Below, piece after piece: positions 1-37,446 of a DNA stretch of 45,150 bases. Location: contig CP065011.1 of the NCBI GenBank assembly GCA_016699795.1, positions 1,141,449 through 1,186,598 of the forward strand. The letters run 5' to 3'. The DNA is from Candidatus Moraniibacteriota bacterium (GTDB lineage: Bacteria; Patescibacteriota; Minisyncoccia; Moranbacterales; GCA-2747515). How positions within the stretch are numbered: the stretch's first letter is position 1; every line of letters starts with the position of its first letter. Position numbers and translations under genes: made by a program. The notes below the pieces were generated by a model, which saw nothing but the letters and a program-made list of their open reading frames with translations, ran no database searches and was not told the origin of the DNA.

Positions 1-524
1 ATAACTTTTTGAAGAAGATACAAAATTAAATCAAGATTATCTTCTTTTTTCTTCTTACGAAAAAAAGCTGTGCATATCATATTCCATAGGATAGTACGAT
101 CCATTGACATAAAATATCCCTCGATATCCAATTTCAAAATCCAACATTCTTTCTGATAATTATCAGAACACGAGCGAAGAAAGTAATTCACACGATCAAT
201 TCCACGAGAAGTTCCTTTCTTTTTCCGACAGCTATACGTATCAGCAATAAATTGTTTATCAAAAACAGGGTTTATATATTGGAAAAGAAGATGATGAACG
301 ACACGATCTCGAAAGTCAGCAGCAAATATCTCCCTCTTTACCGGTTTATGTACAATAAAACAAATACTCGGGCGGATTTCATACCGACGTTCGACAATGT
401 CTTGATACAATTCCATGATATTTTTTTCGTATTCGATTTCAAAAGACACGGCATTCATAGTCCCTCTTTTATTTTTTCGAGCAACATAATAGGCAGAGAA
501 AAGATCAAAAAGAAGTTTTTCCAT
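1..524 (-). CDS. Reverse transcriptase, DGR-associated (N-terminal ~174 codons; 3' part lies beyond the left edge)
   Basis: It is absent from the ORF track because there is no in-window stop. The reverse complement starts with ATG at 524..522 and reads MEKLLFDLFSAYYVARKNKRGTMNAVSFEIEYEKNIMELYQDIVERRYEIRPSICFIVHKPVKREIFAADFRDRVVHHLLFQYINPVFDKQFIADTYSCRKKKGTSRGIDRVNYFLRSC...WILKLDIEGYFMSMD. These are RT motifs 1-3 (FRDRVVHH, SCRKKKGT, LDIEGYF). The start lies 37 nt downstream of the TR. Confidence 0.85.
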   Translation of the reverse strand, partial: MEKLLFDLFSAYYVARKNKRGTMNAVSFEIEYEKNIMELYQDIVERRYEIRPSICFIVHKPVKREIFAADFRDRVVHHLLFQYINPVFDKQFIADTYSCRKKKGTSRGIDRVNYFLRSCSDNYQKECWILKLDIEGYFMSMDRTILWNMICTAFFRKKKKEDNLDLILYLLQKV

Positions 525-538
525 AAAAAAACGAAAAA

Positions 539-554
539 AGTACCCGAAGGTACT
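539..554 (-). other. Stable hairpin in the TR-to-RT spacer (6-bp stem, UUCG tetraloop on the transcribed strand)
   Basis: Plus strand is AGTACC-CGAA-GGTACT. On the minus-strand RNA this reads AGUACC-UUCG-GGUACU. It sits between the TR 3' end (562) and the RT start (524). Confidence 0.5.
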
Positions 555-561
555 CCTTTTC

Positions 562-749
562 GAAATCAATACTTAAGGCACCGAACCGTTAACCCGTTAG
601 CGCGGTTGTTGGAATTGGCGGGATTCACACTCCCAGAGTTGAAGTTGAGGTTCAACGCATTTGTACCACTTACACTACTCGACCAATAGTTCCCGTTACT
701 CCCCTGATTGTTGAAACTGCCATTGGAGTTGTTCCGGTTGCCCGCGACG
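562..749 (-). repeat. DGR template repeat (TR)
   Basis: A 188-nt copy of 1382..1569 with no indels. There are 18 mismatches, all at plus-strand T, which is A on the minus (transcribed) strand. One further non-A mismatch (571) lies in the 3' terminal invariant block. The region is rich in AAY codons if read in the VR frame. Confidence 0.9.
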
Positions 750-929
750 AAAGAATACCCACTCCACTTCTTGTGCATTGTCGTAACATCACACAAAACT
801 TCCAAAAAAAATGGAAGAAATTCCTTATAAAGAAACCTCTTTATAAGAGGGGTATTGAATTGATTAAGGGCACTCCCGCTTTCACACGTAGCAAAAGACG
901 GCTCTCGCCCACATACAAAGAGCATATCG

Positions 930-1274
930 TTAGGTACAGCTAGCCTCCCATCCGGTAAGTTGTTTGGAAACCAATTCTATGGATTCTTGCAAAACAACAA
1001 ATTTTTTGAGGCCTATTTGACGAAGATCTTTTAGTATTCGCAATAAAACGCGAATATTTTCAACGCGTTCTCGAGCTAAACTAATATTCTTTTTTCTTTC
1101 TAATCGATCTTTATTGGCACGATAAATACACATCATCATCGTAATCGTTTCGTTTTTTATATGCTCACCCAGAGTAAAACGATAATCCCGAGAAAAATTA
1201 TTCACAACAAGAAAAAGTTCCAGAAGTAAATCATAGCTCGCTTTATATACCGGAAGATTATCGTACGTTGCCAT
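930..1274 (-). CDS. avd: Avd-like accessory protein (four-helix-bundle / 23S rRNA intervening-sequence protein family)
   Basis: MATYDNLPVYKASYDLLLELFLVVNNFSRDYRFTLGEHIKNE...ARERVENIRVLLRILKDL matches the four-helix-bundle family pattern to which DGR Avd proteins belong. It sits between the VR gene and the TR. I chose the ATG at 1274; the track ORF extends to 1361 through low-complexity sequence. Confidence 0.7.
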   Translation of the reverse strand: MATYDNLPVYKASYDLLLELFLVVNNFSRDYRFTLGEHIKNETITMMMCIYRANKDRLERKKNISLARERVENIRVLLRILKDLRQIGLKKFVVLQESIELVSKQLTGWEASCT

Positions 1275-1334
1275 ATATTTTTTGAAAAAAATGAATGAAA
1301 AATATTTTCTGAAGGAAAAGGGGAAAAACTCAAA

Positions 1335-1351
1335 TTCCGCCTCCGGCGGAA
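1335..1351 (-). promoter_or_regulatory. GC-rich hairpin downstream of VR (candidate DGR target-recognition hairpin/cruciform)
   Basis: TTCCGCC-TCC-GGCGGAA forms a 7-bp stem with a 3-nt loop. It lies 31 nt past the 3' end of the VR homology, and the surrounding DNA is AT-rich. Confidence 0.5.
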
Positions 1352-1381
1352 CCCCGCCCAAAATGCAGGGGAGTCAAAGCA

Positions 1382-1569
1382 GAAATCAATTCTTAAGGCA
1401 CCGAACCGGTAACCCGTTAGCGCGGTCGTAGGAATTGGCGGGATTCACACTCCCAGAGTTGAAGTAGAGGTTCAACGCAAGCGTACCACTTACACTACTC
1501 GACCAATAGAACCCGTAACTCCCCTGATTGCCGAAACCGCCACTGGAGCGGTGCCGGTAGCCCGCGACG
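1382..1569 (-). repeat. DGR variable repeat (VR), forming the C-terminal ~60 codons of the target gene
   Basis: Homologous to TR 562..749. All TR-to-VR differences in the body are at TR adenines. The 3' terminal ~27 nt is invariant apart from one T/A difference. Confidence 0.9.
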
Positions 1570-2561
1570 GATAATTTTAAAGTACTCGCGTACGCGGTAG
1601 CGCTATCAGTAATTCCTTCTGCCGAAACAAGAACACTCCATTCTGGTTGAGTAGGAAGGCGGAAACCTGGAGGGCATGGATTATTTGTACCATCGACTCC
1701 TTGCCAGAGAGTATTGTTTTGTGGACTTCTCCAATCATAAGGAGAACTGGGAGCAAGAATAAATTGTCCATGTCCAGGAGTATCCAAAGAAGAAAGCGTT
1801 CCTGTTGTGGTACTAGTTGTAAGTTGATGTCCATCAGTTCCTCTTCCCCACTGATAATAATGTCCGTAAGATTGCGAATCATTGAATGCTGTAGCTACGC
1901 GTGTTGCACCGAGATTTCTGTCGAGCCATACTTTTCCGTCTTTGGCGGTAATAGGACTATAAATTATTCCTTGAAATCCGCAAGGAACTCCGGAAGAAAC
2001 ACTACTACACGAATAAAGACATGTTGTTGAACATACAGATGGTGTAAAACATTCAGTATTGGTCGAACACGTTGCTCCGGGAGGCTTAAGGAGTTTTATA
2101 TCCGCATTCGTTCCTGTTCCGGAGACATATACTCCCGTGTTTGTTCCTGTGGCAAAGTTACTATCCGTCGTCTCTACCCATGTATTCGCCGTCCCCGTAA
2201 TCATTACACCACTTGCATCTGCTTGAATGTTTGCATCTTTCGAAGCAAACTCCGTCCAGTTTTCTTGATTATTGGTATGTGTAGCAGTATTTACTGTTAC
2301 TCCTCCTATCCAACTACTTTGAATCCATCCATACGTTGCTCCTTTTATATTTTTTGAAAAGAAAAAAGAGACTCCTCCTAAGATAAGAATGGTTAAGAGG
2401 AAAGTAGAAGTGAGTTTTCTTTTTTTGGAGAGGAAAGAAAAAAAAGAAGAAAGAGAGATTTCTTTTTTTTCTTTTATAGAATAAGTATTGTTTTTTTCTT
2501 TTCGTATTCCATCAAGAGTTCTTTGTAGTTTGGGGGGAGTATTTTTTTTCGTAAACATCAT
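1386..2561 (-). CDS. DGR variable (target) protein: N-terminal membrane anchor plus C-terminal FISUMP-like (Fibrobacter succinogenes major paralogous domain-like) domain carrying the VR
   Basis: A TM segment LTSTFLLTILILGGVSFFF lies near the N-terminus. The C-terminal part reads CPPGFRLPTQPEWSVL...AGYRHRSSGGFGNQGSYGFYWSSS...ANGLPVRCLKN, matching the CPxGWRLPxxxEW / YWSSS / G-x-S/P-VRC-x-K pattern of that domain family. Confidence 0.9.
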   Translation of the reverse strand: MMFTKKNTPPKLQRTLDGIRKEKNNTYSIKEKKEISLSSFFSFLSKKRKLTSTFLLTILILGGVSFFFSKNIKGATYGWIQSSWIGGVTVNTATHTNNQENWTEFASKDANIQADASGVMITGTANTWVETTDSNFATGTNTGVYVSGTGTNADIKLLKPPGATCSTNTECFTPSVCSTTCLYSCSSVSSGVPCGFQGIIYSPITAKDGKVWLDRNLGATRVATAFNDSQSYGHYYQWGRGTDGHQLTTSTTTGTLSSLDTPGHGQFILAPSSPYDWRSPQNNTLWQGVDGTNNPCPPGFRLPTQPEWSVLVSAEGITDSATAYASTLKLSVAGYRHRSSGGFGNQGSYGFYWSSSVSGTLALNLYFNSGSVNPANSYDRANGLPVRCLKN

Positions 2562-5760: not shown

Positions 5761-6051
5761 TTAAGCTAAAACTTGCTTTACTACTATACAATCATTTTTT
5801 TTCTTCGGAATATTTTTTATAAGTAACTCATGTTCTTGTTCTTTAGCGCTATGAACACGATCCTCACGGTAGATATTTACCATACCCGTTATATGTCCGA
5901 TAGGAGCAATCTCTTGCGTATCAAGCTCATTAAGTTTTTCTATATATTCCAAGATGGCACTCATTTCTTTACCAAATTTTTCTACCTCTTGATCTGATAA
6001 TTCAATACGAGCGAGATGCGCAATATGACAAACTTCTTCTTTGGAAAGCAT
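5761..6051 (-). CDS. gatC: Glutamyl-tRNA(Gln)/aspartyl-tRNA(Asn) amidotransferase subunit C
   Basis: MLSKEEVCHIAHLARIELSDQEVEKFGKEMSAILEYIEKLNELDT is typical of GatC. I prefer the internal ATG at 6051 over the track start at 6069. Confidence 0.9.
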   Translation of the reverse strand: MLSKEEVCHIAHLARIELSDQEVEKFGKEMSAILEYIEKLNELDTQEIAPIGHITGMVNIYREDRVHSAKEQEHELLIKNIPKKKNDCIVVKQVLA

Positions 6052-6292
6052 AAAGAAAAAAATTAACAACTATTCAAAAATAGAAAAGATTCTCTATCCA
6101 CACAATGCTTTCTATTTATTTTCTTAAGTATAAATCAAAGAAACATTTTATGCGATATTGACACTTTTGTGTTTTTCTGATGTTATTCTTGTGTCGTTAT
6201 CGAAGAATCTTCGTAACGACGATATAGCTATCACGATGTTATTTAACAACGCAAGATGCATTTTAACTTAAAAAATAAGAGGTATACATACA

Positions 6293-6685
6293 ATGGCTAC
6301 GTTCTTTATAAATTCAAAGAATATTTTCACCGCTGTAATCAGAGAGAATCACATTCCTCTCTATAAAGAAATAAGAAAGTCCGGAGGATGCCCCCCTTTA
6401 GGAGGTGCTAAAATATTTGTTTTCTATAAAAAAGAAATGGGTATATTTAGCGATATTTTTTCCAACATACCACCTGTAAAGGATCTTTATAGAAACTGCG
6501 CAGGAACTATAGATGATTTTCATTGGCTTATCCAAAAAGGACAACATAGGTATACACAAGAGTATCGATTTACTGGGTGGGATGGTTTTATCCCATTTTG
6601 TGACGAAAATCTCTTTTGTAATGAAAAAGAAGAATATTATCTCACCAATCTTAGTGACATAAGAAAAATATTTTTCTCAACATAA
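6293..6685 (+). CDS. Hypothetical protein
   Basis: A 130-aa ORF with an AAGAGG ribosome-binding site about 11 nt upstream, followed by a strong intrinsic terminator. Confidence 0.55.
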   Translation: MATFFINSKNIFTAVIRENHIPLYKEIRKSGGCPPLGGAKIFVFYKKEMGIFSDIFSNIPPVKDLYRNCAGTIDDFHWLIQKGQHRYTQEYRFTGWDGFIPFCDENLFCNEKEEYYLTNLSDIRKIFFST

Positions 6686-6717
6686 AATACTAATCCAAAG
6701 TTAGAATAAAGAAACCG

Positions 6718-6765
6718 AGTCCCGATGACTGAAAAACTTTCAGAAAATCGGGACTTTTTTATTTT
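6718..6765 (+). terminator. Rho-independent terminator
   Basis: The stem AGTCCCGAT...ATCGGGACT has an inner CTGAAA/TTTCAG extension and is followed by TTTTTTATTTT. Confidence 0.65.
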
Positions 6766-6800
6766 CAAATAAAAAATGATGAAGGCGGAGTATGAGAAAA

Positions 6801-9035
<2,235 letters not shown>

Positions 9036-9533: not shown

Positions 9534-9956
9534 GGGGCTGTTAGACTTGACGGAATGATCTTTGTCAAAGAAGCGAACCGATCTATCACGATTATATCGA
9601 TAAACTGATCGTGAAAACATACGTGCAACCGTATTCAACAAGGCTAAAGAAGCTATTGCGAAAGCATTTAATCCTTCTTTTGCCCCAGCTTTAGCCTAAA
9701 TTGCCAAAGCCATCGAAATTTGTGAGTGTCTCATAACAAATTTTCGGTGTCATATATATGAGACTGGTTTTTCTTTTTTCTCACAAAAGAAAAATAAGAT
9801 ATTGTGAGGCGATAGCTATATTTTTTCTGTCTTTCTCCAAGATATATCTACCGTAATCGAGATTCCGTATTGCACGGATTCTCGTTAAGAAAGACTGCGT
9901 TCGGAGAAACTTTGATATTTACGTTACCGGACATGGGATCAATCCCATCAGCTCCA
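9534..9956 (+). ncRNA. ssrA: tmRNA (SsrA)
   Basis: The 5' end GGGGCUGUUAGACUUGACGG resembles the conserved GGGGCUG...UUCGACGG start. The 3' end GGACAUGGGAUCAAUCCCAUCAGCUCCA is a tRNA-like T-arm plus acceptor strand. The acceptor helix GGGGCUG/CAGCUCC contains the G3:U wobble used as the alanine identity element. An internal reading frame ends ...AKAFNPSFAPALA-TAA (stop at 9697..9699), a typical hydrophobic Ala-rich tag end. CCA is not encoded, and the T-loop appears to be 6 nt rather than 7. Confidence 0.78.
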
Positions 9957-9996
9957 CATAATATATAAAATCCTTTCTCCAAAGGAAAAAAATACC

Positions 9997-14562: not shown

Positions 14563-15529
14563 AAGGAAGTGTCGCTACTATACCAAAATAACTTGTTGTT
14601 TGTTCGAATGGCTTTCCTGTGAGCACACCCGAGTCTGTATCATACAAAACATGGAGTTTATTAAAGCCTGTTTTTTCCATCGTTCGAAGAAAAATTTCTA
14701 ACGTTTCAGGAGAATCCACATTTTTATCATCGAATGATCGAATACTCGTATAATCATATGATTGCATAGCTTTCAAAGTTTCTTTATTTCGAATTTTTGC
14801 TTCCTTATTTGAAAGATAATGCGAGAAATCAAGAGAAGCTATAAATAAATTCTTTCCTTTTTTGTCCGAAAAATTCGAAAGAATCTGACTCATAGTTTCC
14901 ACCATTTCATTCTCTGTATCCATTCTCACCAAAATAGGAACTACTCGAGCATTCGGGAAAAAAAACTTAACATGAGGAAGAATTCCAGAAATAGAATGCT
15001 CTCCTTCTAATACCTGAGGATTATTTTTTACAAAAGAATTTTGTAAAAGCGAATGGATTTTTTGTCCTTCACAACCAAAAGTACCCAAAGAAGTTTCCCA
15101 ATTATAAAGACTTGTAGTAAAAAACGTTTTTCCTTTTCGATAATGATCGGGACCTATTACAAAAACCGTTTCGATACTATCCGAGGAAATTGACTCTAGA
15201 GTTCCAGCAATAATACGACTAGCCAATAAATGATGAGGGATAATTACACCACCAACATTTTCATTTGCATATTTTTTTCCTGTTTTTTCGTTTTTGGTAC
15301 GAAAAAAGAGATCCTCATCAAAAAATCGATTTGTGTGTAGACCATTTTGACATACCATTTCTTCATTGTTCGAAAAACTTTCTTTTTCAGATGCAACAGA
15401 CAAAGAATTAGTGTTCTTGTAGAAGAAAATCCCCACCGTAACACCACATAATAACAAAGTAATGGTTATCCCAAACGCAATATTTTTATTCATTCGTATT
15501 ATTCTTTTTTTCATCCATTTTTTCTTCAT
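14549..15529 (-). CDS. MEMO1 / AmmeMemoRadiSam system protein B-like, membrane-anchored
   Basis: Motifs GGVIIPHHLLAS, VFVIGPDHY, EHSISGILPHVKFFFP..VVPILV and ASLDFSHYL follow the Memo-family metal-site pattern, with an N-terminal TM segment. Alternative starts at 15514 or 15493 would reduce the overlap with the upstream gene. Confidence 0.7.
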   Translation of the reverse strand: MKKKWMKKRIIRMNKNIAFGITITLLLCGVTVGIFFYKNTNSLSVASEKESFSNNEEMVCQNGLHTNRFFDEDLFFRTKNEKTGKKYANENVGGVIIPHHLLASRIIAGTLESISSDSIETVFVIGPDHYRKGKTFFTTSLYNWETSLGTFGCEGQKIHSLLQNSFVKNNPQVLEGEHSISGILPHVKFFFPNARVVPILVRMDTENEMVETMSQILSNFSDKKGKNLFIASLDFSHYLSNKEAKIRNKETLKAMQSYDYTSIRSFDDKNVDSPETLEIFLRTMEKTGFNKLHVLYDTDSGVLTGKPFEQTTSYFGIVATLPYEEK

Positions 15530-18500
15530 TTCCTACGTTATTTTCAGTGTTCGAGTTATCTTCTGTTATGTTATTATTCTCTTTTTCATTTTCGAATTCT
15601 TCTTTTTTTCCCTTATTTAAGGAAAGAATTATCGCTTTTATACCAAAACCAACAGAAATAGCTCCAATAAGAAACAATATCATTGAAACAATATTTTTAA
15701 AAATACTGGATAAGTTTTTTTGTTGTTTATCTTTTTCTTGATGAATAAAATATTCAGATTCTTTAGCCAAATCTAACTTCTCAACAGCAGTTCTTCCATA
15801 TACTTTGGGTTCATACATAAGCGATACAGTCGCTGGAGGTGCGAAAAACGTTCCAGCATGAGTCACTCGTGCCTTATAAGAATACCTTCTTATATCTGAG
15901 TCTGAGACTCCTTGGTCGGAAAAGATAACTCCATTTTTTGTATATTCTTTTTGTACTTGCCAATAAGAATCTTCCCAACCACTATAATTACCTTGAGACA
16001 TTTGCTCATTTTTCATCTTCGTATTCACCGGAACCATTCCCGAAGGAAGTTGATCCTCTAATACAATATATTGTGATTCTGGTCGAATACCCGTTACTTC
16101 AAAGACAATATCAATACTATCTCCTACTCCAAAAGAATATTTTTCTCCTTTCGTATTTTTATATGATCGAGTGATGGTTAATCCTTGCGATTCTTGTGAT
16201 TCTTCCATATTCGTTCGATATTCTCGAATCAAAAGAGTAGAAAAAATATTTCCCTGATCTGAAGTAATTCTTGCCTTGATATTTCCATTTTTGTCCGATT
16301 CAGAAAGAGGAAGTGCGATAGTGTCAAATTGATTCTTCGCATCAAAATATCCTCGTGCAACTTCTTTATCAGCAAGAAAAACTGAGTATGAAGAGGGTTT
16401 TTGATCTTGTCTTTCCAATCGAGCATATTCTGTAAGTCCTTGAATAACTTGTGCCGTAGCAAAAGTATTATGCCAATGTTGTTCCGTTCTATTTCTTGTA
16501 AGATACCTCACTATACCCACAATCATTTCACGGTCACCACCACCCATTACCAAAGCTCGAAGTCCCATTCCTGTAGAAGCAAATACTGAGCCAAAGTGAT
16601 CCTTATTTCCAGTAGGAAAATAAAAAGCATCGCCTTCCTTTTGAAGTCTTGCCTGTAAGATATCTATTCCATTTTCAGAAGTATCGGTATATCCATTTCG
16701 AATATTAGTCATAACAGCATAAGAAAGTATATCTGGCGTTGCCTGGGAAGGAAAAAAATTAATCTTTTCTTTTGTTGTATTTTTCTCAAAAAGTGATCTT
16801 CCGTAGAGAGCCAAAACAGTCTTATCATAATTATCTTCACTCATTTCCACACTCTGTTCTTGGAAAAATCTCCTAGCTATATCAAGGACAACTTCATCAA
16901 CAGGAAAACCACTCTTTTGAGCTCGAAGAAGATATTCTGTGACATAAACACTCACAAAAATATCTGACTCTCCATAATTACCCCACCAGTTCCAGCCTCC
17001 ATCTTCATTTTGCATATTTAAAAGACGTTTCACGCCTTCTTCCAACATTTTAGAAATATTTTTATCTTCCAAAATTTCCTTATAAAAATCAGAGTTTTCT
17101 TTGGCAATAACAGTAGGAACAAATCGACTCGTTGTTTGTTCCACACAACCATAAGGATAATCGACTAAATATTTCATAGCTGAAGGAAGAGAACCTACCA
17201 ATGTAGAAGAAATATTTAATTCAAACAAAGATTTTTCAAGATAGCTATCGTTATGAAGACTAAAAGTATATTCTTTCTCCCCTTCTCCTCCAAAAGCCTG
17301 CTGATCCCAAAATCCCTGTTTTATAATAGGAAGGGAAAGCGTAACAACATCCCGAACAGACTCATCATTGATATCTTGTAGAGAAAAAGATATTTCATGT
17401 TTTTCTTTCTCCTTCTTTGGTTGTATTTTCCAAAAAACTCTCTGTGATTTTTCAGATTCTAAAGTAATTTTCTTTTCACTTTCTTCCACATCCCCCCCAT
17501 CGGAAAAATCTAAATTAACACGAAATGTTCTCTCTTTATCGCTAAAATTTTGAATAAGAGCAGTGAGATACAAGGAATCCCCTTTATAAAGAATTCTTGG
17601 AAGTTGTGGCCGGATAATAACATTTTTAGATACAATAATTTCATTTGTGGCATTTCCAACTTTTGCGTCTTTCGTTGCAGAAACAGCAGAAAGCACCCAC
17701 GTAGTGAGATTATCAGGAACGACAAAAGAAACAGTAGCTTTTCCATTTTTATCTGTTTGAATAGAAGGGTTCCAATAAGCCACATCTTCAAAAACTGTTC
17801 GTGCATCTCCTCCATCCTTACCATTATGAACCCAGAATCCATTCGCAAAATATGAATAATAAGTATCGATTTCTAGATTAAAAACATCCATCGAATCTCG
17901 TTTCCAATCGAGAGTTTCCACAACGACATTTTTTCCTTCTTTATCAACCAAAACATCTCCTTTTCGTATTTCATCTGCACGTTTCCATATGCCATTAGCA
18001 AAGAGAATGTGATTTGTAGTCACACGAAGATTCTCATTAAACGTTATATACCCAGAAACTTTTTGATGATGCGTTTTTTCTACCTGTGCCGAGATGAGCG
18101 TTGCATCTGTCGAACTTTTTCTTGTTTGTATCCATTCACCCATTTGAACATCTTTTATCGATTTTTCTGAACCATCCGCCATAAGAATTTGTGTATCTCC
18201 AGAAAAACATCCCCCCATTTCGGCAGTGTTAATTCCAATACCTTCAAGAGAATGTGCGTCTTCAGTACCATTCCACCTAAGTCCCCAAAATGTTGAAGAG
18301 ATATCTAAAGTATTTGCATCAGAAAGTTCAAATATTGCCTTATCAACAGCCCAAAGTGTAACTTCTGCTTCTTGAGGAATTCCTTTTTTATTTTTTACAT
18401 CCAAAGATACTGTAACTGTTTCCCCGGGTTCATAATGATTCTTATCCGGAGTAATACTTATATCAAGCAATTCAGAATCCGTAGAGACTTTAATTTCTTT

Positions 18501-20570
18501 TTGCACATCTTCAAGGGAATTATTATTAAAACTCGAAACATTTAAAAATATATTAGGCATATCACGTTCCCCGATAGATTCTTCCCATACAGTATCTTTT
18601 CCTGAAAGAGAAAGTACTTTATAGCGGTGGACATATTCTCTTTCAAAAGTAACAAAAACATCTCTTTTGGAAATATCTGAAACGAGTTTTATTTCTGCTT
18701 TTTCTCCTGGATTATATTTTTCTTTTTCAAGTAATATATTTAGAAGAGAATCCTCACCACTCGGGGAAGAATCATATCCATTCTCATCAACTATCCAAAG
18801 ATAAAATTTCTTTCCTACAACATTTCCTTGATCATCCATTCCCGAAACAAGAACAGAATAAGATCCTTCATGGGTAGGGGAAAATTCAATAGAAGCTTTC
18901 CCTTTTTTATCTGTTTTTATTTTCCAGGTATCTAATATTCCTTCTTTATTTTCAAAACCGTTTGGGAACTCATATTTATCAGCATTTTTCTCCCACCATG
19001 AATAGGAAACATCCACAGAAAGATCTCTTCCATCAAGAGAAGTATCTCTGAACGCATGGAGTTGAATATCTATTTTTTGTTTTTCTCCAACACGACTCCC
19101 GTACCATTCATTATCTCGATATATTCCAAAGTCAGCACTTCGTACAAGAACATTTTTTCTTTCTATAACAGACTGTCCTGTTTCTGACTCCATTACCATT
19201 TCAATTCCATATATTTCTGTAGCATTTTGAGTATTTTTTGCCAAAAATGAAATAGTTCCTTCTCCATTATCATCAAGAACTATCTCTTCTGAAAGATTCT
19301 CTTCTTCACTATAGTATCCATAGAAATTATTACTATCATCTTCTTCAGTAAAAAAATCATATTCATAATAAGCACTCTGAGACACCTTATAAGAAACCTT
19401 TTGTCCAGAAACAGGCTCTCCAGAAAAATAAGAACCCTTCACATTCAAAGTAATTTCTTCTCCCGAAATAATCTCTTTTTCAGTTACAAGTTCAGCATCA
19501 AGTCCGAACTCTGGTTTTTCGTAATATTCTATAGAGAAATAATTAGATGAAGAGGGGTAATCTTCCTCATTCGAACCCTCAAAATACACATCCAAATTAT
19601 ATCCACCAGTCTTTACACTTTCAGGTATTTGAAATTCTCCATCAAAAGAACCTTTTTCGGAAATAGTATATGTTTTGGTAAAAATAACCTCTCGCTCTTC
19701 TCCCCAACCAGAATATAACTCTACACGAGCCGATCCTTTGGGAATACTATAGCGAACATCATCATCTTCTCGAAGTATCGATTTAAAATAAATCTTATCT
19801 CCAGGTTGATACATCGGTCTATCTAAAAAAAGAAATGATTTTTGACTAGGAACACGTTTATCAAAGATAGTATAATCCCCCCAACCATAATTCAGATATC
19901 GCAAATTAAGAGGAATCACTGCGTATGATCCACCATATTCTGCTACCGCAATATCATAATCCTGAGAAAGAGGAGTTATCGCTATACCATCATCACCACT
20001 AGAGGCGAGCTCTTTTTCAGAAACTTTTTCTCGCAAATTATATACACGAATATTTGCCCCAGCGACCGATCGTTTCGTTTCGAAGTCTTGTGTCCAAAAA
20101 ATAAATTCATTATCCCCTTCTTTTGCAATTGTCCCAAAAGTCGAACGAATAACAAAAGAATATAACGATTCCTTTTCACTATAAATATGTAATAAAAAAA
20201 TTCCACTTTTCTCTAAGGGCAAAGTAACTCGTCCATTTGAATGAGGAAGAGAAATAATTTTTGTTAATTGAGAAGGATCGATGATAAAGGATTTTTGCTC
20301 TTTTTCTTTCTCATATCGAAGAAATTCAAGGACTTTTCCAATATTTGATCGATAGACATCCACCGTTATTTCTCCTGAGATATTCTCTCCTCCTACATTT
20401 ACCACAGGTTCATCCGTAGAGGCTATAGGTATAATTCCATTTCTTTCATACATATTCTGACCATATACATAGAGATATGGGTCATCATTTCCTTGAGCTT
20501 TCGCAGTACATTCAACTCTCAAAAAAAGAAAAGAAACAAGAATCCAAAAAAACAAAGAAGGATATTTCAT
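15486..20570 (-). CDS. Alpha-2-macroglobulin family protein (thioester-containing) with an inserted Hint domain and a C-terminal membrane anchor
   Basis: It has an N-terminal signal peptide (MKYPSLFFWILVSFLFLRVECTAKAQ) followed by long beta-rich MG-like repeats. The conserved post-bait segment is ARTVFEDVAYWNPS...VPDNLTTW. The thioester motif YPYGCVEQ has its Cys codon at 17147..17145. A C-terminal TM segment (IVSMILFLIGAISVGFGIKAIIL) precedes an acidic, Asn-rich tail. Confidence 0.9.
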   Translation of the reverse strand: MKYPSLFFWILVSFLFLRVECTAKAQGNDDPYLYVYGQNMYERNGIIPIASTDEPVVNVGGENISGEITVDVYRSNIGKVLEFLRYEKEKEQKSFIIDPSQLTKIISLPHSNGRVTLPLEKSGIFLLHIYSEKESLYSFVIRSTFGTIAKEGDNEFIFWTQDFETKRSVAGANIRVYNLREKVSEKELASSGDDGIAITPLSQDYDIAVAEYGGSYAVIPLNLRYLNYGWGDYTIFDKRVPSQKSFLFLDRPMYQPGDKIYFKSILREDDDVRYSIPKGSARVELYSGWGEEREVIFTKTYTISEKGSFDGEFQIPESVKTGGYNLDVYFEGSNEEDYPSSSNYFSIEYYEKPEFGLDAELVTEKEIISGEEITLNVKGSYFSGEPVSGQKVSYKVSQSAYYEYDFFTEEDDSNNFYGYYSEEENLSEEIVLDDNGEGTISFLAKNTQNATEIYGIEMVMESETGQSVIERKNVLVRSADFGIYRDNEWYGSRVGEKQKIDIQLHAFRDTSLDGRDLSVDVSYSWWEKNADKYEFPNGFENKEGILDTWKIKTDKKGKASIEFSPTHEGSYSVLVSGMDDQGNVVGKKFYLWIVDENGYDSSPSGEDSLLNILLEKEKYNPGEKAEIKLVSDISKRDVFVTFEREYVHRYKVLSLSGKDTVWEESIGERDMPNIFLNVSSFNNNSLEDVQKEIKVSTDSELLDISITPDKNHYEPGETVTVSLDVKNKKGIPQEAEVTLWAVDKAIFELSDANTLDISSTFWGLRWNGTEDAHSLEGIGINTAEMGGCFSGDTQILMADGSEKSIKDVQMGEWIQTRKSSTDATLISAQVEKTHHQKVSGYITFNENLRVTTNHILFANGIWKRADEIRKGDVLVDKEGKNVVVETLDWKRDSMDVFNLEIDTYYSYFANGFWVHNGKDGGDARTVFEDVAYWNPSIQTDKNGKATVSFVVPDNLTTWVLSAVSATKDAKVGNATNEIIVSKNVIIRPQLPRILYKGDSLYLTALIQNFSDKERTFRVNLDFSDGGDVEESEKKITLESEKSQRVFWKIQPKKEKEKHEISFSLQDINDESVRDVVTLSLPIIKQGFWDQQAFGGEGEKEYTFSLHNDSYLEKSLFELNISSTLVGSLPSAMKYLVDYPYGCVEQTTSRFVPTVIAKENSDFYKEILEDKNISKMLEEGVKRLLNMQNEDGGWNWWGNYGESDIFVSVYVTEYLLRAQKSGFPVDEVVLDIARRFFQEQSVEMSEDNYDKTVLALYGRSLFEKNTTKEKINFFPSQATPDILSYAVMTNIRNGYTDTSENGIDILQARLQKEGDAFYFPTGNKDHFGSVFASTGMGLRALVMGGGDREMIVGIVRYLTRNRTEQHWHNTFATAQVIQGLTEYARLERQDQKPSSYSVFLADKEVARGYFDAKNQFDTIALPLSESDKNGNIKARITSDQGNIFSTLLIREYRTNMEESQESQGLTITRSYKNTKGEKYSFGVGDSIDIVFEVTGIRPESQYIVLEDQLPSGMVPVNTKMKNEQMSQGNYSGWEDSYWQVQKEYTKNGVIFSDQGVSDSDIRRYSYKARVTHAGTFFAPPATVSLMYEPKVYGRTAVEKLDLAKESEYFIHQEKDKQQKNLSSIFKNIVSMILFLIGAISVGFGIKAIILSLNKGKKEEFENEKENNNITEDNSNTENNVGNEEKMDEKKNNTNE
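17823..18209 (-). other. Hint / mini-intein-like autoprocessing domain (aa 788-916 of the A2M ORF), +1 residue Gly
   Basis: Block A is GG|CFSGDTQILMADG, block B is RVTTNHIL (TxxH), block F is DVFNLEIDTYYSYFANG, and block G is FWVHN followed by G (GGT 17822..17820). There is no homing-endonuclease insert. Confidence 0.8.
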
Positions 20571-20858: not shown

Positions 20859-23800
20859 ATGCAATGGAAAGAGAAAAAGATTTCGATACTTCTTTTCGGA
20901 ATGTTTTTTTTGTTTTTCTCTTTGATTTCTCCTATTTTTGCACAGGAGACAGAAGAGCAAACACAAGAATCATTAAGAAAAGATCAGATACTCTTTAAAG
21001 AACCAACAGAAGAAGAATTAAAAGCTTCCAAACCCGATACTACAACGGAAGTTATGGATGCTCGTATTCTTTCTCAAAGAGGAAATGTTTTTGATATAGA
21101 ATTTTCTCTTACGAATGGATTAGGAATACAACCTGATGTTCGTTATAGCATACGTCTTGTAGATGGAACGACTAATGATTTCTATTTCGCAACTCTCGAT
21201 GAAAAAATATATCCTGAAATCATTTCTTTAGGAGAAAATGCTTCCCTTAAAAAACAAATTACCTATACAGCTCCAGAGTATCTTTCGGGAGAATACACAC
21301 TTTCTCTTTTTGCTTCCAATAGTTCTGGAAGACTTCTTAGTCTTAATACAGTAGGAGAAGGAAAGATAACACTTACTTCTTCTAAACCTTTTGTATTTAT
21401 TGAAAGAAAAAGTTGCAAACTTAGTGTAAAAGGAGAAGCAGGAAAAGAATATACTCTTGAACAAGGACTTGATGTAAAAAAAGAAGAAACCATGCTTCTT
21501 ACTTGTGGAGTAAAGAATAATACAAAAGAGAAACTCACTCTTATTCCTACTTTCAAAACATTTGAGCGAAATAGTTTCGGAAAACCCATAGAAGACATTC
21601 CGGCTTCTCAAGAACAATTTATTCTTAATGCTGGAGAAACAAAAACACTCACTCTAGAAGTTCCTTTGGCAAACATCCCTCAGGCTTACGATACAAAACT
21701 GAGTTTTACAAATACAGAAAACATTCCTTCCAATGAAATCATTAGTCACTATGTCATACAGGGAAAGAGTGCGACCATAGGTAATCTTCTTTTAGATAAG
21801 AAATCTTACACAAAAGGAGAAACAGCAAATGTTGAGCTTTTTTGGTCTGGATCTGCTGATACTTTTTTTGGTTCTCGAGCAGGACTTCAAGAAAAAGAAG
21901 ATATCATAGCAAGTATTCTTCTTTTGGATGAAAAGAATACTCCTTGCACACAAGAATCAAAGACTGTTTTAAATAATCTCAATAGAAACAAAGCTTTCAT
22001 TCAAATTCCCATAATTGCAGAATGTCCTTCTTACCAAGCTCAAGTAGATATGAGAGATGCGAATGGAAATGTTCTTGCGCAAAAAACCTATTCTTTTTTG
22101 AAAGTACAAGAGAAAGGAATAAATGATTTAAGAGAAAAAGCTTTAATCAACGAAGAAGAAAGAAATCCAGTTTTTCTTTTTCTTTCTCTTAGTGTTTTTC
22201 TTTTGCTTGTTATGCTTATTCTCTTCGTAGTAAAGAAAAGAGGAGGAAGAAAGAGTGTGCAAAAAATAGTTTCTTTTCTATTCTTCTTGGGGTTTTTTTC
22301 TGTAGGATTGATGACGAATGTTCATGAGGCGGATGCGGCATCACAAACTGCAGACTACGGGGCGTGTGTGACGTATTATTCAGCAAAAGACTGGAAAATC
22401 GAAGATTGTACCCAAAATCATAAAACAGCCTTCTTTAGTAAACCTGATGGCATTGTATGGTCTGGAGCACCAGGGACATATCCTGCTTTTACATTCATAG
22501 ATTATGGCTATACCCTTACGATTTCCACAGAAAAATCAGTATATCAAGATAATGAGGGAATAAAGTATAATTTTTCTTTGAGCAATGTTGCTCATGGAGG
22601 CTCTTTAATACTAGGACAACGAGATCTTAGTTGTCCCGACATGGCCTTTGGTTGCGGTGATATAATTCGCTATACTCAAAATATTCATTGGAGTAATGCA
22701 AGTAGCGTGATTAGTGAACCCGCCCTGCTTTTGGGATATACTCATGTACACTATATGTGCTACAGCACTAATGGTAAACCTAATGAGTTTGACATTCCTG
22801 TTGGCATGTGGGAACAAGAAACGTATGGAAAATATGGCCCCAAATTTGTAGGCAAAACGGGAATAAATTTTTACGTTAAAATTAAAGGAATTTATGATTC
22901 TCAGTGGGACTCTTGGGACGGCTCTTGTGGACTCGCTGATAGAGGAAAATATCAAGATAAATCTGAAATAAAGGGAAGTGATTTATGTAATACCTATCCT
23001 CTTCCTAGAAATGGACTCCCGACATCCCCTCTTCCTATTTCTTCTCCTACTACTGAGCTTATAACTCTTAAGGGTAATAAATTTACATGGTCTTGTCCGG
23101 GAAATTGCTACGGAGAAGCAGATCAATGTAGTGCAGATTATGTTGTGGGCGTTTGTGGCTCCGCCAATGGGACTCATCCCTATTATGAAACAATATTTGC
23201 TCCAGGGAGAGATCAATTCTGTAGTTCAGGAACAGCTAGTCCTGTAAAACCAATTTTTCCAAATGTTCAAGGAGGTTCTGTTTCTTGGACGTGTGACAAA
23301 ACCTTTTGCACTGCGTATCGCGGACTTCAAGGTGTGTGTGGATCTGCTAGCGGGAACTCATTTGAAACGTTAACCCCTACCTCTCCTAATATGTGTTCTC
23401 GGGGATCAGTAACAGGATTTAAATTAGTAGGATCTACTTTCAGTTGGGTTTGTGCAGGTTCAAATGGAGGGCCTAATTCTCTTCCTCCCTGTTCAGCAAA
23501 TAAATCTATAAGTCCTCCAGAAGCAATAAATGGAAAATGTGGAACGAATTCAGACAATTATTCTTGTTCTACTAATACATATCCTGGTGGGGGAACATTT
23601 TGTGCACTTGGAACATTAAGCCCTCCTTCACCACTACCAGACTTTCCTGTTCAGGGAGGTGTGGAAACTTGGGACTGTCTAGGTGAAAATGACGGCACGA
23701 AAGCGCCGGGGGGTTGTATAGCAAAAAGAGATGATGTTAGTCAAGTTTCTTGTAAAGCAGACATATCTTGTCTTAAAGGAAATGTGAGTGAATATGATGC

Positions 23801-23969
23801 AGGTCAGCTTTGTGGCACAGGAAATACTTTTGCGATTGGGGGGAAACCAAAATATGCTTCTGGGGAATGGACATGGACCTGTCAGGGGAATAGCTGCACA
23901 TCTCCTCCAAATCAAACTAAAGAATGCAAAGCTCCTCAATGTGCAAAATACGAAGAAGTAGCTCCGTAA
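20859..23969 (+). CDS. Giant surface protein: signal peptide, N-domain, internal TM hairpin, Cys-rich repeat C-domain ending in YEEVAP
   Basis: The signal peptide is ...FFSLISPIFAQE. The internal segment at aa 437-494 is TM, KKRGGRKSVQK, then a hydrophobic stretch ending VHEADA|AS. Repeated C-G-S-A-x-G ... W-x-W-x-C modules follow. It is a paralogue of 42283..45150. Confidence 0.85.
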   Translation: MQWKEKKISILLFGMFFLFFSLISPIFAQETEEQTQESLRKDQILFKEPTEEELKASKPDTTTEVMDARILSQRGNVFDIEFSLTNGLGIQPDVRYSIRLVDGTTNDFYFATLDEKIYPEIISLGENASLKKQITYTAPEYLSGEYTLSLFASNSSGRLLSLNTVGEGKITLTSSKPFVFIERKSCKLSVKGEAGKEYTLEQGLDVKKEETMLLTCGVKNNTKEKLTLIPTFKTFERNSFGKPIEDIPASQEQFILNAGETKTLTLEVPLANIPQAYDTKLSFTNTENIPSNEIISHYVIQGKSATIGNLLLDKKSYTKGETANVELFWSGSADTFFGSRAGLQEKEDIIASILLLDEKNTPCTQESKTVLNNLNRNKAFIQIPIIAECPSYQAQVDMRDANGNVLAQKTYSFLKVQEKGINDLREKALINEEERNPVFLFLSLSVFLLLVMLILFVVKKRGGRKSVQKIVSFLFFLGFFSVGLMTNVHEADAASQTADYGACVTYYSAKDWKIEDCTQNHKTAFFSKPDGIVWSGAPGTYPAFTFIDYGYTLTISTEKSVYQDNEGIKYNFSLSNVAHGGSLILGQRDLSCPDMAFGCGDIIRYTQNIHWSNASSVISEPALLLGYTHVHYMCYSTNGKPNEFDIPVGMWEQETYGKYGPKFVGKTGINFYVKIKGIYDSQWDSWDGSCGLADRGKYQDKSEIKGSDLCNTYPLPRNGLPTSPLPISSPTTELITLKGNKFTWSCPGNCYGEADQCSADYVVGVCGSANGTHPYYETIFAPGRDQFCSSGTASPVKPIFPNVQGGSVSWTCDKTFCTAYRGLQGVCGSASGNSFETLTPTSPNMCSRGSVTGFKLVGSTFSWVCAGSNGGPNSLPPCSANKSISPPEAINGKCGTNSDNYSCSTNTYPGGGTFCALGTLSPPSPLPDFPVQGGVETWDCLGENDGTKAPGGCIAKRDDVSQVSCKADISCLKGNVSEYDAGQLCGTGNTFAIGGKPKYASGEWTWTCQGNSCTSPPNQTKECKAPQCAKYEEVAP

Positions 23970-37298: not shown

Positions 37299-37359
37299 AT
37301 TTTTCACAATATTTTCTCCAATACGGGGAATTAATCCCATATCGGAAAAAACTCTATAG

Positions 37360-37446
37360 CGGAGAGAGAGGGATTCGAACCCCCGATGCCCTTTCGGACA
37401 CGACAGTTTTCAAGACTGTTGCCTTCAACCACTCGGCCATCTCTCC
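37360..37446 (-). tRNA. tRNA-Ser (anticodon UGA), class II with long variable arm
   Basis: The reverse complement is GGAGAGATGGCCGAGTGGTTGAAGGCAACAGTCTTGAAAACTGTCGTGTCCGAAAGGGCATCGGGGGTTCGAATCCCTCTCTCTCCG. It has a 7-bp acceptor stem, anticodon loop CUUGAAA, a long variable arm and a GGTTCGAATCC T-arm. CCA is not encoded. Confidence 0.9.

Follow-up and report, generated by a model that had tools for sequence, protein, structure and literature searches.

A probable chromosomal diversity-generating retroelement in a Moraniibacteriota bacterium, with an RT-7-like RNA beside its template repeat

We analysed a window of 45,150 nt from a 1.19-Mb contig of Candidatus Moraniibacteriota bacterium, a member of the candidate phyla radiation (CPR), and found that one end of it very probably holds a chromosomal diversity-generating retroelement (DGR) of this bacterium. 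All parts of the element lie on the minus strand, in the order target gene ending in a variable repeat (VR), avd, RT-7-like structured RNA, template repeat (TR), stem-loop, and reverse transcriptase (RT) gene (Table 1). Positions are those of the whole window, and the cassette is read on the minus strand throughout. A preliminary description of this DNA had already reported the repeat, the open reading frames (ORFs) of the target, Avd and RT, and a 37-nt spacer separating the TR from the RT gene (561-525), with coordinates that all proved correct, and had likened the order to the target-avd-TR-RT arrangement of Bordetella phage BPP-1, which is indeed what is seen in the window. The gap between avd and the TR, in which that description mentioned nothing, is not empty: the RT-7-like RNA is predicted there. 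Much else about the element is known in kind: an abundance of DGRs has been documented for CPR bacteria, and existing catalogues include the target-avd-TR-RT order as well as the FISUMP/CLec2 class of targets.

Table 1. Parts of the element, listed as they are read on the minus strand. IMH, initiation of mutagenic homing sequence; IMH*, its counterpart in the TR.
Feature	Position	Strand	Description
Target gene	1386..2561	-	391 aa, open ORF 2561->1386; C-terminal FISUMP/Fib_succ_major domain (aa ~208-391) ending in the VR
VR	1382..1569	-	18 A-to-N differences between 1559 and 1409; IMH-like block 1382-1408, A at 1391
GC-rich inverted repeat	1332..1354	-	28 nt after the end of the VR homology; core 1351-1335 TTCCGCC-GGA-GGCGGAA, then a T run
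avd, accessory variability determinant	930..1274	-	114 aa, ORF 1274->930; lies between the repeats
RT-7-like structured RNA	748..908	-	avd-TR gap; long-range closing helix AAUACCCC...GGGUAUU, ending a few nt before the TR/VR homology
TR	562..749	-	188 nt; IMH*-like 3' block 562-588, T at 571
Stem-loop directly 3' of the TR	534..559	-	AAAGGAGUACC-UUCG-GGUACUUUUUU, UNCG tetraloop, then a U run, then the RT start codon
RT gene, N-terminal 174 codons	1..524	-	ATG at 524-522; runs off the window; RT motifs 1-3 = PVKREIFAADFRDRVVHH, SCRKKKGT, ILKLDIEGYFMSMD

To place the locus among its relatives, we examined 83 loci at the DNA level that encode a related RT (three from a genome scan and 80 among the matches listed from a metagenome scan), and we searched a collection of 5.8 billion proteins for homologues of the RT. 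The lineage of this RT is well populated, with at least 80 close metagenome loci. No contig identical or nearly identical to that of the window was present in the genome scan or among the metagenome matches listed, the scans giving relatives of up to 66% identity. The closest full cassette, hereafter L084, was found through its Avd, which is 73% identical to that of the window. About 44 of the related loci show a pair of repeats with a bias towards adenine: 36 have the order VR-avd-TR-RT, four have VR-TR-avd-RT, and in three the VR lies downstream of the RT gene.

Template and variable repeats

The only long direct repeat returned by the repeat finder in the first 4 kb of the window has two copies of 188 nt (562-749 and 1382-1569) that are 90% identical and whose flanks do not align with each other on either side. 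The copies differ at 19 positions. At 18 of these the copy at 562-749 has an adenine and the other copy has T, C or G, a bias that is highly unlikely to arise by chance given the 51 adenines among the 188 nt (binomial P = 8.9e-10). Because the adenines of the mismatched positions are in the copy at 562-749, this copy is the TR and the one at 1382-1569 is the VR, and the relation proposed in the preliminary description thus holds on realignment. The VR had been described there as roughly the last 60 codons of the variable-protein gene; it spans codons ~331-391 of the 391-aa ORF, the stop codon, and 4 nt past the stop. The TR is an adenine-rich, never-translated copy of these last 60 codons.

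The adenines of the TR are distributed in a way that allows much variation in the protein. The A-to-N differences between the two repeats touch 15 codons, of which 14 encode a different amino acid and one is silent. The part of the TR opposite VR codons 335-385 contains 47 adenines, spread over 29 codons; 17 of these codons are AAY, and no codon in this stretch can reach a stop by an A-to-N change. With up to 29 codons re-randomised, about 10^26 protein variants are reachable from the TR.

The last A-to-N site is followed by a block of 27 nt (VR 1408-1382, TR 588-562) that starts with CGGTTCGGTGCC and contains the sole difference between TR and VR at a position without adenine (TR T571 vs VR A1391). 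Such a block is expected to act as the IMH in the VR and the IMH* in the TR, in the sense defined in PMC5758913, a function that we infer from its sequence and place. Since the repeats are identical at all other positions without adenine, homing appears to have been recent.

Reverse transcriptase and accessory protein

The RT gene had been noted as missing from the list of ORFs, and the reason is that this list omits ORFs that run off the window. The visible fragment is the first 45% of the gene, i.e., 174 of about 390 codons. Its frame (frame 1 of 524->1) is open across all of these codons, and both other frames are full of stops. Against Pfam the fragment gave only a weak match, to RVT_1. 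Its sole match in PDB, at E values up to 0.01, was 8ub7_A, a 328-aa chain named 'Reverse transcriptase' (E = 5e-16, residues 7-151), which we take to be the bRT of the Bordetella phage in the cryo-EM study of Handa et al.

The fragment keeps all 30 invariant columns of an alignment of 40 sequences. The protein collection holds 685 homologues, the best of them 66% identical, and those that are long enough read LPIGNLTSQ and YGRYVDD. The RT of L084, which is intact (400 aa) and 70% identical to the window fragment, reads FPIGNLTSQ and YGRYVDD. Across the 83 loci the RTs are about 385-400 aa long. Past the region that corresponds to the fragment, 76 loci have the motif IGNxTxQ and 72 have YxRYVDD, and in nearly all of the loci the motifs are in the same frame. 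The relatives at 48-70% identity are DGR RTs within DGR cassettes, and the fragment thus belongs to a clade of DGR RTs.

Many RT homologues in the collection have only 150-215 aa. We considered whether the RT could be systematically split, and rejected this idea because the DNA of the related loci shows mostly intact RTs of about 390 aa. Contig ends, a small number of frameshifts, and TGA codons in frame account for the short proteins. Such TGA codons were observed in the RT genes of four loci (L055, L057, L058 and L078), where IGNLTSQ and YGRYVDD are still in the same frame; judging from these genes, the hosts probably use genetic code 25, in which UGA is a sense codon. In-frame TGA accounts for many of the truncated 'RT' proteins of the public collection.

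The gene between the repeats was previously described as Avd-like, in agreement with its match to the Pfam family PF22296 bAvd (53.9 bits, above the cut-off of 40). The source record annotates it in the 114-aa form. Relatives of the protein are 73% identical, and those at 70-71% are named 'four helix bundle protein' and come from Candidatus Moraniibacteriota.

A structured RNA at the 5' edge of the template repeat

The gap of 180 nt between avd and the TR matches the Rfam family RF03028 (RT-7) over the full model (1-191, 908->748; 41.6 bits, E = 9.3e-8). The score is below the gathering score of 116.8, and we therefore call the element RT-7-like, i.e., a divergent relative and no curated member of the family. 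Matches to RT-7 were found in nine relatives as well (38-85 bits, none at the gathering score). In all ten loci the match stops, on its 3' side, no more than about 8 nt from where the TR/VR homology begins. In L013 avd comes after the TR, yet the RT-7-like RNA still abuts the TR.

We searched for covariation in a 10-sequence MAFFT alignment, using RNAalifold and pair counting with 500 shuffles. RNAalifold predicted a 5' hairpin and the long-range closing helix. The helices comprise 21 pairs, in which 90% of the cells are paired, compared with 76% in the shuffles and 39-46% when the partners are slid. Both sides have changed in 12 of the 21 pairs, and none of the 500 shuffles reached any of the observed measures. 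RT-7 was not detected by Rfam in L084 at E values up to 0.01; a pairwise alignment of the window RNA with L084 shows compensatory changes in each hairpin. In comparison with RF03028, the window RNA keeps GCNAGAG, GAGUGC, AAUUCANUANCCC, GAGUGGNUA, the 5' hairpin and the closing helix, but its inner hairpins are shorter and its score is far lower than the gathering threshold.

RT-7 is one of the motifs RT-1 to RT-19 of Weinberg et al. (2017), of which only RT-10 was tied to a DGR, as the spacer 3' of the TR in BPP-1, the others being left unassigned (PMC5737381). The same authors speculated that other RT motifs serve DGRs (PMC5737381). The element of the window abuts the 5' end of a DGR TR, and the Rfam scan of positions 1-2700 gave no match to RT-10. 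We put forward tentatively, as a possibility that we judge less probable than its opposite, that in the lineage of DGRs with FISUMP/CLec2-type targets (from CPR bacteria, Omnitrophota, Bacteroidota and others) the large structured part of the template RNA is an RT-7-like element immediately 5' of the TR, with no more than a short stem-loop of 25-95 nt on the 3' side, and that the RT-7-like RNA is the scaffold of the RT-Avd ribonucleoprotein, with a geometry unlike that of BPP-1. If this were true, the orphan family RT-7 would gain a function, and the geometry of priming and of stopping would differ from that of the Bordetella phage ribonucleoprotein. The phage complex is, to our knowledge, the only DGR ribonucleoprotein that has been solved, and an RT-7-like RNA at the 5' edge of the TR offers a testable contrast to it. 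The link between RT-7 and the 5' edge of DGR TRs would also provide an extra marker for RNA annotators and DGR finders.

Hairpins and short repeats near the template and variable repeats

The stem-loop directly 3' of the TR is a candidate for an Avd-binding stem-loop and/or for an attenuator before the RT gene; together with the U run that follows, it could attenuate read-through into RT. L084 and about 13 of 30 relatives have a hairpin of different sequence at this place. Handa et al. (bioRxiv 10.1101/2023.10.23.563531) reported putative Avd-binding stem-loops with a tetraloop shortly downstream of the TR for 207 of 278 Avd-type DGRs, a class that the stem-loop of the window matches.

On the side of the VR, the GC-rich inverted repeat is kept in L084, with the loop GAA instead of GGA, and many relatives have small GC hairpins at the same place. 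It is a candidate for a hairpin acting at the target site and/or for a terminator of target transcription. A GC-rich inverted repeat is present downstream of the IMH in about 34% of DGRs, and that of BPP-1 promotes homing (PMC5758913). In addition, the 80 nt that follow the VR contain tandem TATTTGAC units in 22 of 38 relatives (including L012, L015, L026, L031, L038, L061, L066 and L068); the 8-mer occurs 42 times on the plus strand of those loci, and 29 of these occurrences belong to the tandem copies. The window (at about 1377-1370) and L084 have one degenerate unit each, CTTTGACT. The tandem units may contribute to the recognition of the target site. All the cis elements are kept between the window and L084.

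Two other candidate elements were not retained. A duplex of the TR flanks resembling the 'cPRT stop' of BPP-1 reaches -20.8 kcal/mol in the window (GGGUAUUCUUU with AAAGGAGUACC), but in 29 loci the cognate flanks pair no better than non-cognate ones (median of -8.0 for either; P = 0.44). We also dropped a template:primer duplex that would join the TR 3' end to the 5' coding region of RT, as the best duplexes were at inconsistent positions in 27 loci. As a separate observation, the GGGUAUUCUUU that precedes the TR can pair either with AAUACCC of the RT-7-like RNA or with AAAGGAGUACC, the 5' arm of the UUCG stem-loop (748-775 and 534-561, minus strand). The two pairings are mutually exclusive, which hints at a conformational switch, and the relatives give it no support.

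The target protein and its paralogue

The C-terminal domain of the target was recognised as FISUMP by two families (Pfam PF09603, 37.7 bits, cut-off 33.9; NCBIfam TIGR02145, 42.8 bits, cut-off 41.65). FISUMP-type domains correspond to the CLec2 class of VRs, category d among the targets in Wu et al. (PMC5758913). The N-terminus of the protein is basic and is followed by a single strongly hydrophobic helix, a 19-mer at aa 50-68 (nt 2358-2414). Further on there is a Cys-rich stretch with six cysteines (aa 165-194), and then Cys296 and Cys388, which are invariant in the family. We read this architecture as that of a membrane-anchored protein with its variable tip turned outward, a topology deduced from the protein sequence. 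Its likely role is to vary a surface that binds a ligand or a host, and the protein is thus a candidate determinant of host attachment in an organism whose presumed way of life is attachment to other cells. The target has 3121 homologues in the protein collection; one of them (P0135), on a contig of the same length as that of L084, is 63% identical.

Foldseek comparisons of the target models with PDB and with BFVD (viral) gave no match with an E value below 0.6, a profile search of the PDB sequences with the target gave only a chance-level match to CotH, and single-sequence searches of PDB with Avd and with the target were uninformative.

The genome encodes a paralogue of the target outside the window, P0235 (QQS61037.1, IPN70_04085). 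Its first 109 residues are identical to those of the target, after which the two proteins diverge, and it has a different FISUMP domain. This pattern points to an N-terminal duplication or a gene conversion of recent date, and it may mean that the genome has a second TR or DGR. The tail of P0235 resembles a VR, but it differs from the translation of the TR at many positions without adenine, and it is therefore not a remote target of the TR of the window. It may answer to another TR elsewhere, or it may be a fossil. The preliminary description had envisaged further VR copies as remote targets; the 45 kb hold no further copy of the TR and no second FISUMP gene, and the tail of P0235 is not explained by the TR. 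No second Avd from the contig of P0235 was found in the protein collection. P0235 nevertheless points to a second surface protein that is, or formerly was, diversified, and since the contig that bears the DGR comprises 1.19 Mb of a Moranbacteria genome, targets could be listed across the whole genome.

Proposed mechanism and integrity of the element

The working of the element can be proposed by analogy with the Bordetella phage. The complex of RT and Avd would bind a transcript reaching from the structured RNA through the TR to the stem-loop 3' of it. Reverse transcription of the TR RNA would start at the 3' end of the TR and insert random bases opposite adenines, and the resulting cDNA would replace the VR, the IMH setting the 3' boundary and the downstream GC hairpin helping the process. 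The outcome would be the re-randomisation of up to 29 codons for the C-terminal FISUMP domain, in a protein that a single N-terminal helix anchors in the membrane.

Several observations weigh against this reading of the locus. Motif 4 ([LIV]GxxxSQ) and the YxDD motif of the window RT lie beyond the edge of the window and were not seen. The RT itself is absent from the protein collection (best match 66%), although Avd, the target (P0121), GatA and the folate-type ligase of the same locus are all present there, and the source record is therefore probably without an RT annotated as an intact protein. The Avd scores below the cut-off of NCBIfam NF033474 DivGenRetAVD (50.4 bits, cut-off 80). The C-type-lectin fold of the target was not confirmed, the AlphaFold2 models having a mean predicted local distance difference test (pLDDT) of 64 for the full protein and 51 for the C-terminal domain. 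Finally, the locus is represented by one sequence, and ongoing activity is unproven. The statement in the preliminary description that every visible part is intact stands for the parts seen in the window but cannot be extended to the RT, of which 174 of about 390 codons are visible and which the collection lacks; with only its N-terminus within the window, the integrity of this RT is unproven.

The absence of the RT from the collection could reflect a frameshift or a stop, whether real or due to an assembly error, or else the gene may extend across the point at which the record starts. Were the defect real, the locus would be a DGR inactivated recently by a break in the RT gene beyond the window, with a VR that is now frozen. 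We regard this as possible, though the less likely reading. It would account for a missing RT next to four neighbouring proteins that are present, and there are precedents in the lineage, where the RT genes of L033, L072, L047 and L051 are frameshifted or truncated. Yet an assembly frameshift or a gene crossing the record start would explain the absence equally well, and what is visible of the element speaks against long-standing decay: the 174 RT codons are open and retain every invariant residue, the TR and VR agree at all non-adenine positions except the one in the IMH, the TR keeps its 17 AAY codons and has no stop-capable codon, and the cis elements are all conserved relative to L084. Since the open RT fragment, the identity of the repeats, the codon design of the TR and the cis elements have all been kept, any inactivation would be very recent.

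Comparison with known systems

The element resembles that of the Bordetella phage BPP-1 (mtd-avd-TR-brt) in its organisation. They share the order of a target with a 3' VR, avd, TR and RT; the mutagenesis specific to adenines; an IMH-like 3' block with a difference between TR and VR; an inverted GC repeat that follows the VR; and, 3' of the TR, a stem-loop whose loop is of the UNCG type. The N-terminus of the window RT also aligns to 8ub7_A across 145 residues. The window element is chromosomal and its target is a membrane-anchored FISUMP-domain protein, whereas BPP-1 carries its DGR on a phage and diversifies the tail-fibre protein Mtd. The TR of the window is longer (188 nt, against 134 nt in BPP-1). 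The spacer between TR and RT has 37 nt, compared with about 140 nt for the spacer (Sp, Rfam RT-10) of BPP-1. The large structured RNA of the window is 5' of the TR, whereas in BPP-1 the essential Sp, with its priming adenosine, is 3' of the TR.

In the type of target, the element resembles the chromosomal, cellular DGR of Legionella pneumophila, where the VR is in a C-terminal domain of the DUF1566/DUF823/Fib_succ_major type of a surface-exposed protein, LdtA. This likeness is one of domain class and not of direct sequence comparison, and LdtA is a lipoprotein of the Gram-negative outer membrane, whereas the target of the window belongs to a CPR bacterium and has a single N-terminal transmembrane helix. 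Category d, or class CLec2, which LdtA exemplifies, represents 14% of 372 DGRs (Wu et al. 2018, PMC5758913).

The host group itself, the CPR, is known to be rich in DGRs (PMC5758913). The window element resembles other DGRs of CPR bacteria (Patescibacteria) in its host with a small genome, and L084 has the same parts, with 70% identity in RT and 73% in Avd. It differs from most of them in having a recognisable FISUMP/CLec2 class, common to Bacteroidota, Omnitrophota and others, whereas the VRs and targets of most CPR DGRs are unclassifiable (Wu et al., PMC5758913). L084 itself shows a peculiarity, an insert of about 1.1 kb between the target gene and avd (5919-6966 of that locus), which encodes an ORF with a GIY-YIG domain and two ORFs without domain match and contains several repeats of 49-70 nt. 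The insert has the appearance of mobile DNA that entered the cassette.

Origin of the element and genomic context

The genes downstream of the cassette encode housekeeping functions, i.e., a folate/F420-type gamma-glutamyl ligase, gatA, gatC, ligA, tmRNA, infC, a DEAD-box helicase, pyruvate kinase, malic enzyme and others, and the GC content is 31-40%. The cassette of L084 adjoins ftsA and ftsZ. From this housekeeping flank, the relatives in Moraniibacteriota, and the identity of only 35-48% between phage DGR RTs and the window fragment, it follows that the element belongs to the chromosome of a CPR bacterium. The preliminary description was therefore right on both counts: it had inferred a chromosomal location from the lack of phage genes on the right flank, where gatCA, ligA, tmRNA and infC are found, and had placed the DNA in a CPR-type genome, the source being Candidatus Moraniibacteriota.

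A DGR borne by a phage or prophage and diversifying a receptor-binding protein, as in BPP-1, would fit the matches between the fragment and phage DGR RTs, but it is very improbable. The identity to cellular and metagenomic RTs (up to 70%) is much higher than that to any phage RT, the 24 window proteins that were scanned against Pfam across the 45 kb include no recognised phage-type gene (the left flank past the RT being outside the window), the closest relative is next to cell division genes and the window element next to housekeeping genes, and the target has an N-terminal membrane anchor instead of the architecture of a tail fibre.

That there is no retroelement at all, and that 562-749 is a decaying pseudogene fragment from a duplicated 3' end of the target beside an unrelated RT of a group II intron or retron, can be dismissed as hardly credible: the weak match (46.9 bits) that the RT fragment gives to TIGR04416, the group II intron RT/maturase family of NCBIfam, and the label 'retron-type reverse transcriptase' given by JGI to some RT homologues favour it, but the former is far below the cut-off of 300, no group II intron or retron RNA family was found in positions 1-2700 at E values up to 10, the PDB matches up to E = 0.01 comprised no retron or group II RT and only the Bordetella phage DGR RT, neutral decay would not be expected to place 18 of 19 mismatches at adenines (P = 8.9e-10), and an Avd lies between the repeats in a four-part cassette that recurs in relatives.

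Some further features of the window may be noted. The only curated RNA families that reached the gathering score are the tmRNA (9534-9959, plus strand, 93 bits) and a tRNA-Ser(TGA) (37359-37446, minus strand). The gene at 15486-20570 (minus strand) encodes a protein of 1694 aa of the alpha-2-macroglobulin family, with a Hint/PT-HINT (intein-like) module inserted at aa ~783-916. Two large ORFs possibly encode surface proteins: one of 1036 aa without a Pfam match (20859-23969, plus strand), and one of 937 aa in which an InlB B-repeat-like domain is the only one recognised (42283-45096, minus strand).

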